Source of the DNA: Isurus oxyrinchus
Taxonomy: Eukaryota
DNA: 64,000 nucleotides
Direction of reading: 5' to 3'
Assembly (NCBI GenBank): GCA_026770705.1
Contig: JANJGN010000012.1
Location: forward strand, 91,574,001-91,638,000
Positions 13,901-24,745 of this stretch are shown in pieces. The notes under the pieces are model-generated. The model saw nothing but the letters and a program-made list of their open reading frames with translations, had not been told where the DNA came from and made no database searches. Position 1 is the first letter of the stretch, and each line of letters starts with the position of its first letter. Both the position numbers and the translations under genes were made by a program.

Positions 13901-14171
13901 TTGGTCAATAAGATCCCTTACAAAAAATACTCAATGTAATCACTATCAACATATGGAGAAGGTGATGGTAGACCTTCTCCTTGAACTGCTGATGATGTGA
14001 TACAATTAAGTGCTTTCCTAAACCACTTCAGAGGACAGTTAAGAGGCAAACACAATGGTGAGACTCAACTGGCAAATAAGGCAGAACTAAAAGGAGCAAT
14101 AGAATGAAAAACAAAAACAGAATTACCTGGAAAAACTCAGCAGGTCTGGCAGCATTGGCGGAGAAGAAAAG

Positions 14172-14210
14172 AGTTGACGTTTCGAGTCCTCATGACCCTT
14201 CGACAGAACT
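14172..14210 (-). ncRNA. Hammerhead-like motif in left-arm pLTR (variant core CUGUCGA)
   Basis: Reverse complement identical to the motif at 19250-19288. Confidence 0.55.
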
Positions 14211-14597
14211 TGATTTCGAGTCCAAGAAAGAGTTGAAATATAAGCTGGTTTAAGGTGTGTGTGTGGGGGGCAGAGAGATAGAGAGAGAGGGGGGGGTGTG
14301 GTTGTAGGGACAAACAAGCAGATCATCAAAAGATGTCAGCGACAATGGTACAAAAGAACACATAGGTGTTAAAGTTAAAGTTGGTGATATTATCTAAATG
14401 AATGTGCTGATTAAGAATGGATGGTAGGGCACTCAAGGTACAGCTCTAGTGGGGGTGGAGGGAGCATAAAAGATTTTAAAATATTTAAAAATAATGGAAA
14501 TAGGTGGGAAAAGAAAAATCTATATAATTTATTGGGGAAAAAAAAGAGGGGGGAAACAGAAAGGGGGTGGGGATGGGGGAGGGTGGGGGGGGGGAGC

Positions 14598-16742
14598 TCA
14601 CGACCTAAAGTTGTTGAATTCAATATTCAGTCCGGAAGGCTGTAAGGTGCCTAGTCGGAAGATGAGGTGTTGTTCCTCCAGTTTGCGTTGGGCTTCACTG
14701 GAACAATGCAGCAAGCCAAGGACAGACATGTAGGCAAGAGAGCAGGGTGGAGTGTTAAAATGGCAAGCGACAGGGAGGTTTGGGTCATTCTTGCGGACAG
14801 ACCGCAGGTGTTCTGCAAAGCGGTCGCCCAGTTTACGTTTGGTCTCTCCAATGTAGAGGAGACCACATTGGGAGCAACGAATGCAGTAGACTAAGTTGGG
14901 GGAAATGCAAGTGAAATGCTGCTTCACTTGAAAGGAGTGTTTGGGCCCTTGGACAGTGAGGAGAGAGGAAGTGAAGGGGCAGGTGTTACATCTTTTGCGT
15001 GGGCATGGGGTGGTGCCATAGGAGGGGGTTGAGGAGTAGGGGGTGATGGAGGAGTGGACCAGGGTGTCCCGGAGGGAGCGATCCCTACGGAATGCCGATT
15101 ATGGGGGTGAAGGGAAGATGTGTTTGGTGGTGGCATCATGCTGGTGTTGGCGGAAATGGCGGAGGATGATCCTTTGAATGCGGAGGCTGGTGGGGTGATA
15201 AGTAAGGACAAGGGGGACCCTATCATGTTTCTGGGAGGGAGGAGAAGGCATGAGGGCGGATGCGCGGGAGATGGGCTGGACACGGTTGAGGGCCCTGTCA
15301 ACGACCGTGGGTGGAAAACCTTGGTTAAGGAAGAAGGAGGACATGTCAGAGGAACCGTTTTTGAAGGTAGCATCATCGGAACAGATGCGACGAAGGCGGA
15401 GGAACTGGGAGAATGGGATGGAGTCCTTACAGGAAGCAGGGAGAGAGGAGCTGTAGTCGAGGTAGCTGTGGGAGTCGGTGGGTTTGTAATGGATATTGGT
15501 GGACAGTCTATCACCAGAGATTGAGACAGAGAGGTCAAGGAAGGGAAGGGAAGTGTCAGAGATGGACCACATGAAAATGATGGAGGGGTGGAGATTGGAA
15601 GCAAAATTAATAAATTTTTCCAAGTCCCGATGAGAGCATGAAGCGGCACCAAAGTAATCATCGATGTACCGGAGAAAAAGTTGTGGAAGGGGGCCGGAGT
15701 AGGACTGCAACAAGGAATGTTCCACATACCCCATAAAGAGACAGGCATAGCTGGGGCCCATGCGGGTACCCATAGCCACACCTTTTATTTGGAGGAAGTG
15801 AGAGGAGTTGAGGGAGAAATTGTTCAACGTGAGAACAAGTTCAGCCAGACGGAGGAGAGTAGTAATGGATGGGGATTGTTCGGGCCTCTGTTCGAGGAAG
15901 AAGCTAAGGGCCCTCAGACCATCCTGGTGGGGGATGGAGGTGTAGAGGGATTGGACGTCCATGGTGAAGAGGAAGCGGTTGGGGCCAGGGAACTGGAAAT
16001 TGTTGATGTGACGTAAGGTGTCAGAGGAATCACGGATGTAGGTGGGAAGGGACTGGACAAGGGGAGAGAGAAGGGAGTCAAGATAACGAGAAATGAGTTC
16101 TGTGGGGCAGGAGCAAGCTGAGACGATCGGTCTACCGGGGCAGTTCTGTTTGTGGATTTTGGGTAGGAGATAGAAGCGGGCCGTCCAAGGTTGGGCGACT
16201 ATCAGGTTGGAAGCTGTGGGAGGAAGATCCCCAGAGGAGATGAGGTCAGTGACAGTCCTGGAAACAATGGCTTGATGTTCAGTGGTGGGGTCATGGTCCA
16301 GGGAGAGGTAGGAGGTAGTGTCTGCGCGTTGACGCTCAGCCTCCGCGAGGTAGATGTCAGTGCGCCAGACAACAACAGCACCACCCTTGTCAGCGGGTTT
16401 GATGACAATGTCAGGGTTGGACCTGAGAGAATGGAGTGCAGTAAGTTCAGAGAGAGACAGGTTAGAATGGGTGAGAGGAGCAGAGAAATTGAGACGACTA
16501 ATGTCGCGCCGACAGTTCTCAATGAAAAGATCAAGAGAAGGTAAGAATCCAGAGGGAGGGGTCCAGGTGGAGGGAGAATATTGGAGATGGGTAAAAGGAT
16601 CCGTTGAACTGGGAGAGGACTCCTGCCCAAAGAAGTGAGCCCGGAGACGAAGACGGCGGAAGAAGAGTTCAGTATCACGCCGAGCCCGAAATTCATTCAG
16701 GTGAGGGCGTAAGGGTATGAAACTAAGTCCTTTGCTGAGCAC
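14598..16742 (-). pseudogene. PLE RT + GIY-YIG endonuclease ORF, 5'-truncated, one in-frame stop at 15099-15101
   Basis: KPADKG, LPKIHK, RPIVS, DVQSLY, GVAMG, RYIDD RT motifs; VYCIRCSQCGLLYIGET...RFAEH endonuclease motif. Confidence 0.9.
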
Positions 16743-16945
16743 TGAACATTCAGCATCGGAGAGGGGAAGGTCAGGGGGTATAGTGAATACACGGCTGGGG
16801 CTGGGATTGGAAGATGGGGTGGGGACGGAGGGACAGGCCGGGGTGGAGGGTCCTAGATGGGTGTTGGTGTCGATGAGTTGTTGGAGCTTGCGTTCCTTAG
16901 CACTTGAGAGAAAGAGAAAAAGTCTCTTGTTGAGGCATCGGATGC

Positions 16946-18853
16946 GACATTCGTCGTCTCAATTTCTCTGCTCCTCTCACCCATTCTAACCTGTCTCTCT
17001 CTGAACTTACTGCACTCCATTCTCTCAGGTCCAACCCTGACATTGTCACTAAACCCGCTGACAAGGGTGGTGCTGTTGTTGTCTGGCGCACTGACCTCTA
17101 CCTCGCAGAGGCTGAGCGTCAACTCGCAGACACTTCCTCCTACCTCTCCCTGGACCATGACCCCACCACTGAACATCAAGCCATTGTTTCCAGGACTGTC
17201 ACTGACCTCAGCTCCTCTGGGGATCTCCTTCCCACAGCTTCCAACCTGATAGTCGCCCAACCTCGGACGGCCCGCTTCTATCTCCTACCCAAAATCCACA
17301 AACAGAACTGCCCCGGTAGACCGATCGTCTCAGCTTGCTCCTGCCCCACAGAACTCATTTCTCGTTATCTTGACTCCCTTCTCTCTCCCCTTGTCCAGTC
17401 CCTTCCCACCTACATCCGTGATTCCTCTGACACCTTACGTCACATCAACAATTTCCAGTTCCCTGGCCCCAACTGTTTCCTCTTCACCATGGACGTCCAA
17501 TCCCTCTACACCTCCATCCTCCACCAGGATGGTCTGAGGGCCCTTAGCTTCTTCCTCGAACAGAGGCCCGAACAATCCCCATCCACCACTACTCTCCTCC
17601 GTCTGGCTGAACTTGTTCTCACGTTGAACAATTTCTCCTTCAACTCCTCTCACTTCCTCCAAATAAAAGGTGTGGCTATGGGTACCCGCATGGGCCCCAG
17701 CTATGCCTGTCTCTTTATGGGGTATGTGGAACATTCCTTGTTGCAGTCCTACTCCGGCCCCCTTCCACAACTTTTTCTCCGGTACATCGATGATTACTTC
17801 GGTGCCGCTTCATGCTCTCGTCGGGACTTGGAAAAATTTATTAATTTTGCTTCCAATCTCCACCCCTCCATCATTTTCACGTGGTCCATCTCTGACACTT
17901 CCCTTCCCTTCCTTGACCTCTCTGTCTCAATCTCTGGTGATAGACTGTCCACCAATATCCATTACAAACCCACCGACTCCCACAGCTACCTAGACTACAG
18001 CTCCTCACACCCTGCTTCCTGTAAGGACTCCATCCCATTCTCCCAGTTCCTTCGCCTTCGTCGCATCTGTTCCGATGATGCTACCTTCAAAAACGGTTCC
18101 TCTGACATGTCCTCCTTCTTCCTTAACCGAGGTTTTCCACCCACGGTCGTTGACAGGGCCCTCAACCGTGTCCAGCCCATCTCCCGCGCATCCGCCCTCA
18201 CGCCTTCTCCTCCCTCCCAGAAACATGATAGGGTCCCCCTTGTCCTCACTTATCACCCCACCAGCCTCCGCATTCAAAGGATCATCCTCCGCCATTTCCG
18301 CCAACTCCAGCATGATGCCACCACCAAACACATCTTCCCTTCACCCCCCTTATCGGCATTCCGTAGGGATCGCTCCCTCCGGGACACCCTGGTCCACTCC
18401 TCCATCACCCCCTACTCCTCAATCCCCTCCTATGGCACCACCCCATGCCCACGCAAAAGATGTAACACCTGCCCCTTCACTTCCTCTCTCCTCACCGTCC
18501 AAGGGCCCAAACACTCCTTTCAAGTGAAGCAGCATTTCACTTGCATTTCCCCCAACTTAGTCTACTGCATTCGTTGCTCCCAATGTGGTCTCCTCTACAC
18601 TGGAGAGACCAAACGTAAACTGGGCGACCACTTTGCAGAACACCTGCGGTCTGTCCGCAAGAATGACCCAAACCTTCCTGTCGCTTGCCATTTTAACACT
18701 CCACCCTGCTCTCTTGCCCACATGTCTGTCCTTGGCTTGCTGCATTGTTCCAGTGAAGCCCAACGCAAACTGGAGGAACAACACCTCATCTTCCGACTAG
18801 GCACTTTACAGCCTTCCGGACTGAATATTGAATTCAACAACTTTAGGTCGTGA
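16946..18853 (+). CDS. PLE RT + Cys-rich linker + GIY-YIG ORF, 5'-truncated but apparently uninterrupted
   Basis: ORF track 17489-18853 (454 aa) is in frame with the junction at 16946; RYIDD; CPRKRCNTC linker typical of the Neptune group; LVYCIRC..C..LYTGET. Confidence 0.9.
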   Translation, partial: DIRRLNFSAPLTHSNLSLSELTALHSLRSNPDIVTKPADKGGAVVVWRTDLYLAEAERQLADTSSYLSLDHDPTTEHQAIVSRTVTDLSSSGDLLPTASNLIVAQPRTARFYLLPKIHKQNCPGRPIVSACSCPTELISRYLDSLLSPLVQSLPTYIRDSSDTLRHINNFQFPGPNCFLFTMDVQSLYTSILHQDGLRALSFFLEQRPEQSPSTTTLLRLAELVLTLNNFSFNSSHFLQIKGVAMGTRMGPSYACLFMGYVEHSLLQSYSGPLPQLFLRYIDDYFGAASCSRRDLEKFINFASNLHPSIIFTWSISDTSLPFLDLSVSISGDRLSTNIHYKPTDSHSYLDYSSSHPASCKDSIPFSQFLRLRRICSDDATFKNGSSDMSSFFLNRGFPPTVVDRALNRVQPISRASALTPSPPSQKHDRVPLVLTYHPTSLRIQRIILRHFRQLQHDATTKHIFPSPPLSAFRRDRSLRDTLVHSSITPYSSIPSYGTTPCPRKRCNTCPFTSSLLTVQGPKHSFQVKQHFTCISPNLVYCIRCSQCGLLYTGETKRKLGDHFAEHLRSVRKNDPNLPVACHFNTPPCSLAHMSVLGLLHCSSEAQRKLEEQHLIFRLGTLQPSGLNIEFNNFRS

Positions 18854-19249
18854 GCTCCCCCCCCCCTCCCCCATCCCCACCCCCTTTCTGTTTCCCCCCC
18901 TTTTTTTTCCCCAATAAATTATATAGATTTTTCTTTTCCCACCTATTTCCATTATTTTTAAATATTTTAAAATCTTTTATGCTCCCTCCACCCCCACTAG
19001 AGCTGTACCTTGAGTGCCCTACCATCCATTCTTAATTAGCACATTCGTTTAGATAATATCACCAACTTTAACTTTAACACCTATGTGTTCTTTTGTACCA
19101 TTGTCGCTGACATCTTTTGATGATCTGCTTCTATCACTGCTTGTTTGTCCCTACAACCACACCACCCCCCCTCTCTCTCTATCTCTCCCTCCCCCACACA
19201 CACACCTTAAACCAGCTTATATTTCAACTCTTTCTTGGACTCGAAATCA

Positions 19250-19288
19250 AGTTCTGTCGAAGGGTCATGAGGACTCGAAACGTCAACT
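19250..19288 (+). ncRNA. Hammerhead-like motif in right-arm pLTR (variant core CUGUCGA)
   Basis: agtt-CTGTCGA-a-gggtc(atgag)gactc-GAAAC-GTC-aact. Confidence 0.55.
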
Positions 19289-20225
19289 CTTTTCTTCTCC
19301 GCCGATGCTGCCAGACCTGCTGAGTTTTTCCAGGTAATTCTGTTTTTGTTTTGGATTTCCAGCATCCGCAGTTTATTGTTTTTGTTTTTAGCAATAGAAT
19401 GAAATCCTGACATTTTCTGTTGCTGTGTTATACTGGAAAATGAGGCTTTGTAATTTGCTGTCCTAAGCAAAGCAGCTGTGACCTGATTCATGCAATTAGA
19501 AATGGTGGTTTGGTTGAGGCTTGTCATACCACCTGCAGTGTTGTGAAGGACCCAGCAGCAGGTGAGAACAGCTGTCTGATCACTACCACAGATGAGACTT
19601 TGCTCATTTCAGCATCTGTTTAGAGAATAGTTAACAACTCTTTACAGAGAGCAAGGCCGGTTTCTGTTGAGAACCTGAATCTTTGGAGATTTGTGTTTAT
19701 CAGGCAAAAATTACATATTTTTGCTTAAACACACATATACTTTTATTTCTTTTTCTACCTCTACAACATCAGCATATTGTATTAACATTAACAAATTGTA
19801 TACAAAATCAAGGTGGAGCATTGAAGAAGCATGCAGTTTTTGGTAATTCTCTTGGTTAATACATTCATTAGGTAAGAGGTAGATCACTAACAAAATTCTA
19901 TAAAGCATATGAGTGAGACTGAGCACATCCATAAACAACATACAAAATCATTGCAGCCAAGCAAATGAGCACAGCTGAGGAAACTGAGTGCAACATGAGA
20001 GTTTGGTGATTGGGAGAGTTTAAAGTGTTAATTTTGTTCTTAAAATCTGATCTAGCCTGTAATTAGCAATAACTGGGAAATACTGTGTAAACAGACTAAT
20101 TTTCTTTCTTTTTTGCAGCTTAGACAGGGTAAATACACTCCGCTGTGAGAACTGAGTAGTTAATTAGCTAACTGGTTGAATCTGGTTTCTCTAGCCCCAA
20201 TTCAGTTGGCTACAAATTCAGGGTT

Positions 20226-21300
20226 GCTTGGCCTAAATAGCCAAGTGGTTATGGTACTGGGTTTGTATTCCTGAGATCAAGGGTTCAAATCTCACAATGG
20301 CAAACTATGAAACAATGTAACTTCATCTGAAACAGATGGAAACGGGTTTGTACTCTTAAAAAAAAAGTTACCTGTCACAGTTTTGGCTTGGCCTAAATAG
20401 CCAAGTGGTTATGGTACTGGGTTTGTAACCCCAAGATCGAGAGTTCAAATCTCACAATGGCAAACTATGAAACAATGTAACTTCATCTGAAACAGATGGA
20501 CACGTGTTTGTGCTCGAAAGAGTATCAGTAAAGTGATATCATCGACAATGCTATCAAGCGGCACTTATATAGCCATAACCTGCTCAATTAGGCTTGGCCT
20601 AAATAGCCAAGTGGTTATGGTACTGGGCTTGTAACCCCAAGATCAAGAGTTCAAATCTCACAATGGGAAATAATGTAACTTCATCTGAAACAGATGGAAA
20701 CGGGTTTGTACTCGAAAGAAATCAAGAGTTCAAAGGCTTGGCCTAAATAGCCAAGTGGTTATGGTACTGGGTTTGTAACCCCAAGATCGAGAGTTCAACT
20801 CTCACAATGGCAAACTATGAAACAATGTAACTTCATCTGAAACAGATGGAAACGGGTTTGTGCTTGAAAGAGTATCAAGAGTTTAAATCTCACAATGGCA
20901 AACCTATGAAACAATGTAACTTCATCTGAATAGGAACAGATGGAACCATGTTTGTACTCGAAAGAGTTACATTGCCGGGCCTTTAGCTTGGCCTAAATAG
21001 CCAAGTGGTTATGGTACTGGGCTTGTAACCCGAAGATCAAGAGTTCAAATCTCACAATGGCAAACTATAAACAATGTAACTTCATCTGAAACAGATGGAA
21101 ACGGGTTTGTACTCGTAAGAGTATCAAGGGTTCAAATCTCACAATGGCAAACTATGAAACAATGTAACTTCATCTGAAACAGATGGAAACGGATCTGTAC
21201 TCGAAAGAAATCAAGAGTTCAAATCTCACAGTGGCAAACTATGAAACAATGTAACTTCATCTGAATCAGATGGAAACGGGTTTGTACTCAAAAGAGTTAC
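20226..21300 (+). mobile_element. Concatemer of five tRNA-Thr-like SINE units with eight B-box/tail modules and unique junction sequences
   Basis: Heads gcttggcctaaatagccaagtggtta at 20226, 20386, 20592, 20736, 20986; A box tagccaagtgg, anticodon-loop-like ttgtaa, B box agttcaaatc; TSD tacaaattcagggtt at 20211-20225 and 21298-21312. Confidence 0.85.
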
Positions 21301-21577
21301 AAATTCAGGGTTCTTAGTGCAGCCAAGGCAACTGAGGGAAGCTAAGGAAATTGATTGCAAACCTGAGTGTTTGGGGAGTTAGGGTGAAGTGGAAATTGGT
21401 TCTTACTCTTAAGCAGGGAAAGGAGATAGCTGTTTGCTCAGTATCTGATAAGTTGATAAATTCTATTCTATCCCTAAGGTTTAAAATACGACACAATTTT
21501 GTGGTAAAATTAATAAAATATATAAAAAAAACAAAATAAATAAGTGAACAATGTAATAAATTAAAACACATTAAGGG

Positions 21578-22480
21578 TGGCAGGACAGGTGATGTGTCAA
21601 GGCTGCCGAATGTGGGAGATCCAGAATACCACTGTGATCTAGGGAAAACACATCTGCAGTAAACGTTTGCAGCTTGACAAACTTCGACTCAGGGTTCACT
21701 GAGCTGGAGGCTGAGCTGTGGACTCTGCAACATATCAGGAAGAGTGAAAGTTACTTTGTACCAGGAGGCAGTCACACCACTTAGGATAGGGTCTTCTGAT
21801 TTGGTCAATGGTCAAGATGGTGTGAATGCAGCTGAGGCATGTAAGGGGACCCAGAGGGCAGGAGTGTCAGCCTCTGCAATTGTCCAATAGGTTTGAGGTT
21901 CTCTCAGCTTGTTTGGAGGAGAGTAGGGGCTGCAGGATAGATGAACAAAATATGGCAATGTGGTACAGGAAGCCATGCAAGTGGGGGGAGCAAGAGTGAA
22001 TGGAGTGGTAGCAGGGGACGGTATAGTGAGTGGGATTGACACCGTTCTCTGCAGCAAAGAGCGAGAATCCAGATGGCTATGTTGCCTGCTGGTGCCAGGG
22101 TTTGGGACATCTTCTCAGGACTGGAGGGAACTTGCAGTGTGAGTGGGAGCATCCAGTTGTCTTGGTCCAAGTAGGTACGAATAACATAGGTAGAACTAGA
22201 AAAGAGGTTCTATATCAAGAATATGAGGAGCCAGGCACTAAATTTAAAAAGCAGAATCTCAAAGGTTAAAATCTCTGGATTATTACCTGAGCCAGCATAG
22301 GGTATATAAAATTAGAGAGATGTTTACGTAGCTCATGTGGGTTCCGGTTTGTGGAGCACTGGCATCAGTACTGGGGAAAGTGGGGGCTGTACTGTTGGGA
22401 CGGTCTATACCTGAACCATGCTGGGACCAGTATTCTTGCAAACCATTTAACTAGGGAAGTAGAGAGGGTTTCAAACTAAA
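21578..22480 (+). pseudogene. CR1 ORF1 (zinc finger/leucine zipper + esterase), disrupted
   Basis: Motifs spread over frames 21960-22142 and 22030-22269; multiple stops and frameshifts. Confidence 0.75.
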
Positions 22481-22644: not shown

Positions 22645-24745
22645 ACTAAACTAAGGGCTCTGTATCTGAATGCACATTGCATTCATAACAAAGTAAATAT
22701 TGATAGTGTACGTTGAAGTAAATAAATATAATCTGATTGCCATTACGGAGACATGGCTGCAGGATGACAAGGATTAGGTCCTGAATATTGAGTGGGAAAT
22801 GACATTCAAGAAGAATAGGAAACTAGGTCGAGGTGGAGGGGTAACACTGTTAATCAGGGATGGCATTTGTGCAATAGAGATGACTTTGGTTCAGGAGATC
22901 AGGGTGTAGAATCGGTTTGGGAAATGAGAAACACTAGAGGAAAGAAGTCACTAGTGGGAGTGTTCTACAAGACCCCTAACAGCAACCATAATGTAGGACA
23001 AAGTATACAAGAAGAAATACTGGGTGCTTGTAATAAAGGGATGGCAATAATCATGGGTGACTTTAGCCTGCATATAAATCAGATTGTCAGTAGTAGTCTG
23101 GATGAGGAGTTTATAGAATGCTTTTGAGATTGTTTCTTAGAGCAACATGTTCTGGAACCAAAAGACTACATTAAACTTGGGTATTGTGTAATTGTCCTGG
23201 AACCAACAGGCTATATTAAACTTGGGTATTGTGTAATTGTTCTGGAACCAACAGGTTATATTAAACTTGGGCATTGTGTAATTGTTCTGGAACCAACAGG
23301 CTATATTAAACTTGGGTACTGTGTAATGTGACAGAATTAATTAATGACCTCCGAGTAAAGCACCCCTCGGTAGCAGCGACCACAATATGATTGAATTTTA
23401 CATCCAGTTTGAAAAGGAGAAGAGTGTGTCTAAGACTAGTTTATTAAACATGGATAAGGGCAACTATGTTGGCATGAACGCTGATCTAGCTGAAGTGAAT
23501 TAGGATACTAGGCAAGAGGATAGATCAAGAGAGAAGCAGTGGGAGACATTTAAGGGGATATTTCAGAATACTCAGAATAAGTATATTCTTATGATAAAGA
23601 AAATTCTAAAGTGAGGACCCACCATCCGTGGTTAACTAAAGCAGCTAGGGAAAGCATCAAACTTAAGGAAAAAGCATATAACTGTGCAAATATGAGTGGA
23701 AAGTCAGGTGATTGGCCTGAATATAAAGAATGGCAGAGAATAACAAAAGGTTAATCAGGGGAAATAAAATAGAGTATGAGAAGGAGCTAGCTGGAAATGT
23801 AAAAACATGATAGCAAGAGTTTCTACAGGTATTTTAAAAAGGAAAAGAGTAAGTAAGGTGAGTGTTGGTCTTCTAGAGAGTGACAATGGGGAGTTAATAG
23901 TAGATAATAAGGAAATGTCGGATGAAATGAACAAATATCTTCTGTCTTCACTCTAGAGGAGACAAAATACATTCCAGTAATAACTGTAAATCAGGAGGTG
24001 GAAGGCAGAGAGGAACTTGGTGAAATGGAGCTGCAGGCTGACAAGTCTCCGGGTCCAGATGGACTAGATCCTCGGGTCTTAAAAGAAACAGCTGATGAGT
24101 GGTAGATGCATTCATATTAATTTTCTAAAAATCCCTAGATTCTGGGAAGGTTCCATCAGACTGGAAAGTAGCAAATATAACCTCTCTATTCAAGAAAGGA
24201 GGCAGGCAGAAAACAGGAAACTATAGACCAGTTAGCTTGACGTCTGTCATGGGGAAGGTGTTAGAATCAATCATTAAAGAGGTTATAGGTGGGCACTTAG
24301 AAAAACGCAAGGTAATCGAGAAGAGTCAGCATGGTTTTGTGAAAGGAAAATCATGCTCAAACAATGTATTGGAGTTCTTTGAAGGAGTAACATGCGCTGT
24401 GGATAAAGGGAAGCCTGAAGACGTATGATACTTGGATTTCCAGGAGGCATTTGGTAAGGTGCCACATCAAAGGTTATTGTAGAAAATAAAAGCTCATGGT
24501 GTAGGGGGTAACATATTAACATGGAAAGAAGATTGGCTGGCTGGCAAAAATCAGTGTGCATAAATGGGTCTTTTTCTGGTTGGCAGGATGTGAGGAGTAG
24601 AGTCCCACAGGGGTCTGTGCTGGGACCTCAAATTTTTACATTTACATCAATGACTTTGTTAAGGGGAACAAAGGTATGGTAGCTAAATTTGCAGATGACA
24701 CAAAGATAGGTAAGAATGTATGTTGTGAAGGGGACATAAGGGGGC
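22645..24745 (+). pseudogene. CR1 ORF2 (APE endonuclease + RT), disrupted
   Basis: Fragments 22867-23127 and 24237-24428 in the ORF track, plus motifs in other frames. Confidence 0.85.
23148..23327 (+). repeat. 45-bp x4 tandem repeat inside CR1 ORF2
   Basis: tgttctggaaccaacaggctatattaaacttgggtattgtgtaat repeated four times with few substitutions. Confidence 0.95.

Follow-up and report, generated by a model that had tools for sequence, protein, structure and literature searches.

Tandem copies of a SINE around a target-site duplication (TSD) have been described earlier in the crocodilian SINEU. This element is moved by Tx1-type LINEs (Tx1-Mar) that target a DNA transposon, and one Tx1 family is known to target Harbinger elements (PMC4494074). 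The repeated, independent additions at the 5' end of SINEU have been ascribed to a template switch (PMC4494074). The SINE discussed here resembles SINEU in its tandem copies around the TSD, but it differs in other respects. SINEU carries snRNA heads and poly(A) tails and has no Pol III promoter; its additions are described as single short pieces, and its tandems are read as sequential insertions (PMC4494074). Chains of many full units, or 3' trailers traced to source loci, do not appear in the relevant sections of that account (PMC4494074).

Another kind of comparable structure is the chimera of U6, 5S, tRNA or Alu with LINE-1. As in the present arrays, a small RNA lies in sense 5' of the retroelement, within one TSD (Law et al., 10.1101/2025.02.02.635956). 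Template switching or ligation has been proposed for these chimeras (Law et al.). They are, however, two-part and rare, with 253 candidates of the known types in human, whereas chains are the majority state here. The 5S pieces in them are mostly truncated and antisense (Law et al.), while those found here are full-length and in sense.

Serial template jumping in vitro has been reported for the R2 reverse transcriptase (PMC8594491) and for L1 ORF2p (PMC10830420), both of which, as is proposed here, copy several templates end-to-end into one cDNA with added nucleotides. In R2 transgene insertion, 'extra template' joints occur at low frequency (PMC11331408). Such jumping was seen in the test tube or in engineered systems, and in other clades, whereas the present case is a natural germline record with thousands of joints, made by what is likely a Tx1 enzyme. 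The SINE arrays of the blood clam come in two layouts (PMC11481361), TSD-(SINE-TSD)n and TSD-(SINE)n-TSD, both of which also occur here. The clam arrays account for ~3% of copies, are built of very similar units that are all cut at one position, and have been ascribed to unequal recombination (PMC11481361); unlike them, the arrays described here hold 105 of 128 sampled heads and have dissimilar units and foreign spacers. No account of this SINE family, or of multi-RNA SINE chains with traceable flanks, was found in the literature searched, which includes few subscription journals and neither Repbase nor Dfam; PMC13343379 makes no mention of Tx1, tandem or template. As far as was searched, a SINE family that normally yields chained RNAs, with flanks that can be traced, would be new, while jumping in vitro, extra-template joints, two-part chimeras, the extensions and tandems of SINEU and the clam arrays were already known.

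The block under study lies in a window of 64,000 nucleotides (C12:91,574,001-91,638,000) of a 4.98-Gb genome. Judged from the sequence, it is probably a single insertion, made in one target-primed reverse transcription event by a Tx1-type enzyme that jumped serially between RNAs. Exact SINE heads start at 20226, 20386, 20592, 20736 and 20986 and nowhere else in the window. The 15-bp TSD, TACAAATTCAGGGTT, stands on the + strand at 20211..20225 and again at 21298..21312, the two copies being identical at 15/15 positions. The 3' copy shares TAC with the tail of unit 5, and the same overlap is seen in most clean TSDs of the family. A third copy was searched for inside the block and is absent. The original prediction had placed five heads with the same first base inside one 15-bp direct repeat, with this overlap and without an internal TSD; all of this is borne out here, though at least 11 of the 25 multi-head arrays sampled elsewhere do carry internal target copies.

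The array splits the 5' region of an older CR1-like element (20092..21900, + strand), and both flanks align to a paralogue, L068, as fits the CR1 5' region that had been named as the host. A downstream host frame in L068 matches a GDSL esterase, a domain associated with CR1 elements, and fits CR1 ORF1. The 15-mer was followed in 11 paralogous host loci. It occurs once in 8 of them (at most 3 mismatches), one more aligns but is too diverged there, and two are unaligned over the site. It is doubled in none of the 11, and the SINE is present in none of them, so that the empty site expected for a TSD was indeed found. At L075 (~1440-1500), a U6-like 3' piece, labelled by eye, and an A run stand directly before a 5'-truncated copy of the host CR1-like element. 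Elsewhere in the window, an inverted pair of LINE pieces (14108-16507 and 16944-19352) shows 97% identity at a distance of 436 nt, and a 45-bp tandem repeat occurs four times in a row (23148-23327).

All the parts of the block lie on the + strand. Unit 1 (20226..20371) is made up of a tRNA-derived head, one module and an A-run variant of the tail, and is followed by spacer 1 (20372..20384), a putative captured 3' trailer that ends in T4, and then by a G. Unit 2 (20386..20527) has a head and one module and ends in the B-type tail; behind it come the 62 nt of spacer 2 (20528..20589) and then AG. Unit 3 (20592..20734), followed by G, has a head and one module with an 8-nt deletion, and is cut 14 nt into what is either a second module or a B-type tail. 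Its end, which is not at a T run, allows two readings: either the B box is cut, or this is the B-type tail (the second tail of the family) with three A. In unit 4, the head and first module (20736..20873) are followed by a second module (20874..20970), and then by spacer 4 (20971..20984) and an A. Unit 5 (20986..21300) has a head, three modules and an A-type tail that agrees with the LINE tail in 21/23 nt, and would have been the first template copied. The numbers of complete modules from unit 1 to unit 5 are thus 1, 1, 1, 2 and 3, and the four joints carry, in order, the extra letters G, AG, G and A. These extra purines could be untemplated, or could reflect a variable transcription start. 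The joints are as they had been described, except that spacer 2 was given as 63 nt; the predicted cut of unit 3 inside its B box is one reading, the B-type tail being the other.

The units differ from one another, as had been noticed, in their substitutions as well as in their module number, with 4-9 changes in the head and first module in 10/10 pairs. A tandem array or satellite born of recombination was ruled out for this block, as units with 4-9 changes are not near-identical. It is also highly improbable that the block grew by independent successive insertions at the same site or by tandem duplication of the DNA. Block duplications do occur in large arrays, and the tandem SINEU-3 copies around a TSD have been read as sequential insertions (PMC4494074). 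However, each further insertion should leave a duplication, of which this block has none; its units differ as random members of the family do (median 7.5 vs 8), and the foreign spacers are left unexplained by both routes.

For tracing the spacers, the diagnostic changes were compared against 520 other modules and 394 other heads. With the first search pattern, spacer 1 had five other matches with no SINE near any of them; with the second, it had five matches outside the window, of which three are unrelated and two are linked to a SINE (L061 on C2 and L066 on C22). L061 is a monomer followed by the spacer 1 trailer with T5, and it shares the A-run tail of unit 1 but not its head. L066 is a unit within another array, has the same trailer and carries the head diagnostic of unit 1. 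This diagnostic occurs in 1/394 other heads (L066/L151), and the A-run tail in 2/520 other modules, both at spacer 1 loci. Spacer 4 has four exact matches outside the window, three in one C12 array and one on C13. At C12 it is the target duplication of a mixed LINE/SINE array itself, which continues into the TTTT with which a truncated LINE piece begins, and the spacer in the window comprises this duplication together with the first of these Ts. The origin of spacer 4 as LINE coding sequence was ruled out on the same ground. At C13 (L051) it stands behind the unit that opens an array; the trailer runs on for 4 nt more there, and these too agree with the C12 sequence. The second module of unit 4 carries a 1-nt insertion that is found in 3/520 other modules, all of them at spacer 4 loci.

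The match of spacer 2 is of a different kind. Among the best 40 of 1069 candidates scored, its best match is the C18 site L032 (C18:43,993,461), with 98% identity over 66 nt, followed by one of 84%. The SINE is absent at this C18 site in the assembly, the spacer is joined via ATCA, and no T4 stands at its end. The match may represent a SINE allele that was lost or remained unsampled. Contigs of organism B read C at L032:1536, the same base as in spacer 2. The prediction that the spacers would be found 3' of SINE copies, with more Ts and with shared diagnostics, holds for spacers 1 and 4, but not for spacer 2 with its SINE-free site. In all, two of the three testable spacers sit behind SINE modules with matching rare diagnostics; these sources are, however, not the clean monomers identical to the units that had been expected. 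An exact source RNA was not found for any unit among the matching loci, because the head of unit 1 is missing from L061, and the C12 copies are without one change that unit 4 has in common with L051. In other arrays, spacers 1 and 4 reappear beside different neighbours and with different T lengths (T4-T5). Of the three outcomes that the prediction had set against its own reading, none came about in full; a fixed composite element was ruled out by these differing neighbours, and a 15-mer doubled before the insertion by the host paralogues.

The loci around the spacers also bear on another possibility, an unlikely one, that the same jumping took up units 2-4 as a single read-through transcript of an older array, about three RNAs being joined in all. 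No T4 occurs between 20386 and 20984, and units 2-4 could therefore have come as one RNA. Moreover, read-through trailers become heritable subfamilies, and source alleles can be absent from the assembly. Against this, no precursor with the neighbours seen in the block turned up either in the spacer 2 search (best 40 of 1069 candidates) or in the exact spacer 4 search (5 matches). Thus, the claim that one event serially copied five separate RNAs is largely supported, with the qualification that units 2-4 may have been one RNA, and that the number of templates may exceed five, since additional switches seem to lie behind the extra modules.

The element itself is a tRNA-derived SINE, short, non-coding, dispersed and TSD-flanked, with a tRNA-like head that carries A and B boxes. 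The Rfam tRNA score of the head is 29.4-30 bits in 3/5 units, against a cut-off of 29, and its fold is cloverleaf-like (z -2.0); ARAGORN called no tRNA in the window. An identity with SINEU, with its U1/U2-derived head and poly(A) tail, was ruled out by the tRNA head and hairpin tail. In the genome, exact matches to the 13-nt head number 20,435 (control pattern, 1), and exact tail-to-head joints with a gap of 1-30 nt number 6,201 (control, 0). For the arrays, the sample was built on the first 100 heads of C1, which lie in 47 loci; sampling by exact heads slightly favours long arrays. Arrays of two or more heads make up 25 of the 48 sampled and hold 105 of the 128 heads, and the longest array has 36 heads. 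TSDs of 14-15 bp are common in the family, though automatic TSD calls are missing or wrong for many arrays. The SINE and its head-to-tail joints are also contained in contigs of organism B (runs X8, X14).

At least 11 of the 25 multi-head arrays have copies of their own target between units, a feature that would favour sequential insertion. In 24 chosen arrays, 19 of which gave pairs, successive units separated by a target copy show a median difference of 7, against 8 for random family members, and 4/65 pairs are nearly identical; the units are therefore not duplicates of one another. This speaks against sequential insertion in these arrays as well. Large arrays such as L117, L126 and L054/55 repeat whole spacer blocks in order and have therefore undergone duplication at the DNA level. 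In L019, L026 and L010, inner spacers of 68-223 nt copy the upstream flank of the array itself, far beyond the normal length of a duplication. In L121, L124, L125, L137 and L058, many inner units end at a T-rich spot ~67 nt into the module, perhaps through early termination by Pol III.

The spacers between units were then considered as a set of 320 inner joints in 97 arrays, chosen partly for being chains. By an automatic and imperfect classing, the 248 distinct spacers fall into 135 foreign ones, 67 target copies, 3 pieces of the preferred target and 43 of under 8 nt. T3 or more is found within the last 3 nt of 60/135 foreign spacers, as compared with 8.3% of random flank pieces and 6/67 target copies; the other 75/135 lack a T3 end, and the foreign class includes some misfiled target copies. 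In long foreign spacers, internal T5 occurs in 0/63 (9.9% in random pieces) and internal T4 in 6/63 (23% in random pieces), while A5, in 11/63, is not depleted. The T-run ends, together with the depletion of internal T5, are the signature that would be expected of Pol III transcripts. One trailer is found at 14 loci, which differ in its T tail and in what lies beside it; at L163 it stands as a true flank with a duplication and T5, whereas in the daughters it ends in T2-T4, and both the letters that come next and the template behind them vary. The flank of the monomer L166 reappears inside array L155. A further foreign spacer (L079) likewise leads to a SINE-free site (C11:58,215,499), at 92% identity, with TAC homology, and has T7 in the array as against T3 at that site.

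Cellular RNAs are also captured. Full-length 5S is present in arrays L025 and L160 and full-length U6 in L133 and L155, each beginning at its own first base and ending, ahead of the next head, in a short run of T. Genes for tRNAs, complete with leader and trailer but without CCA, occur in L007, L059, L092, L126, L128, L154 and L157, the last being a tRNA-Tyr of 91 nt, long enough for an intron. All the captured 5S, U6, tRNA and LINE pieces are in sense, and the 5S, U6 and tRNA copies stand either ahead of a unit or between two. The same orientation, the full-length U6 and 5S and the shortened U tails would also be in keeping with RNAs ligated end to end by RtcB before reverse transcription, a mechanism named and proposed for U6/LINE-1 chimeras (10.1101/2025.02.02.635956). 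Here, however, such ligation has very little likelihood. The acceptors all start at one base, the likely transcription start, and the triphosphate at a transcription start is not a substrate of RtcB. The joints carry variable extra letters, homology is used at the module joints, and many arrays have copies of the DNA target between units, which ligation cannot make.

A LINE that could supply the enzyme is found in the arrays themselves. It is 7.0 kb long and occurs in tandem as well as mixed with SINE units. It has two ORFs, of which ORF1 is without a Pfam match and ORF2, in two frames in the copy examined, has endonuclease (APE), RT and zf-RVT domains, the last below the curated cut-off. Its best named relative is the Xenopus Tx1 149 kDa protein (49%, E 3.5e-225), and on its domains and this match it is predicted to be Tx1-type. 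The LINE has two tail types, both shared by the SINE. The A-type tail agrees with the SINE tail in 21/23 nt and has, in both SINE and LINE, a small terminal hairpin of weak z (-1.5 to -2.3); the B tail contains an 11-mer of the B box of the head. Of the 47 sampled loci, 7 share one insertion site, as judged by eye, and the repeat in which it lies has a DDE_Tnp_4 frame and is presumably a Harbinger-like transposon. From the shared tails, the shared target and the mixed arrays, it is most likely the enzyme of this Tx1-type LINE that moves the SINE. Perfect preferred targets give 1,273 matches in the genome, and 20/20 of those checked are empty. This makes plain repeated insertion at poor sites less likely, though the SINE tail may itself be a strong target.

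Several details of the target and the LINE deserve a place here. The flanks of L022, L066, L087 and C12:10.54 Mb show that the same site of the Harbinger-like repeat is used even where it has diverged. At L145-L149 (C11:48.71 Mb and C13:60.41 Mb), full-length tandem copies of the 7.0-kb LINE are 98-99% identical, with the preferred target between them and SINE chains on their flanks. At L052/L053 (C12:10.54 Mb), the 5' breakpoint is the same in three LINE pieces whose tails differ, a pattern that independent truncation does not explain; L087 and L091 look alike. Just beyond the array at L052 (C12:10.539 Mb) lies a processed, A-tailed ribosomal protein mRNA copy, presumably RPL38-like.

A course of events can be proposed for the block. 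The SINE appears to have no terminator, and Pol III would therefore read on through the 3' flank of each locus until it reached a T run. The first RNA would be primed inside its own tail via 3-4 nt of homology (TAC), and therefore bring no flank. On arriving at the 5' end of one RNA, the enzyme would then jump to the 3' end of another, and the later RNAs, entered at their free 3' ends, would bring their flanks along. The extra modules probably come from a second type of switch, at the 11-mer common to the B box and the B-type tail, and the block may therefore hold up to eight templates. The second module of unit 4, which has its own head at C12 and C13, is likely such a separate RNA joined at this 11-mer; L166/L155 show the same exchange. 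It is also possible that extra modules come from inherited multi-module RNAs.

A wider reading can be offered tentatively, with rather less confidence than that of the single insertion. The Tx1 enzyme may work in rounds at one nick, chaining RNAs end to end and re-priming on a new RNA after copying the target overhang, so that TSD-unit-TSD-unit arrays too would be single events. Chaining would then be the normal way in which the SINE spreads, and its joints would form a library of the ancient germline Pol III transcriptome. If so, thousands of joints would name active source loci, nascent pre-tRNAs and SINE alleles since lost.

As a rule, the transcribed sources among the thousands of copies of a SINE cannot be told, since insertion does away with the 3' flank. 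Inner units keep theirs, and the source loci as well as the genealogies of source and daughter could therefore be read from the assembly alone; the chains would form a fossil record of the small RNAs made in the germline. They would also show serial template jumping, so far familiar chiefly through in vitro work and scarce two-part chimeras, as a majority outcome in a vertebrate germline. Beside recombination or repeated insertion, this would be an alternative origin for tandem arrays of SINEs. A reverse transcriptase so prone to jumping may also find use in small-RNA sequencing.
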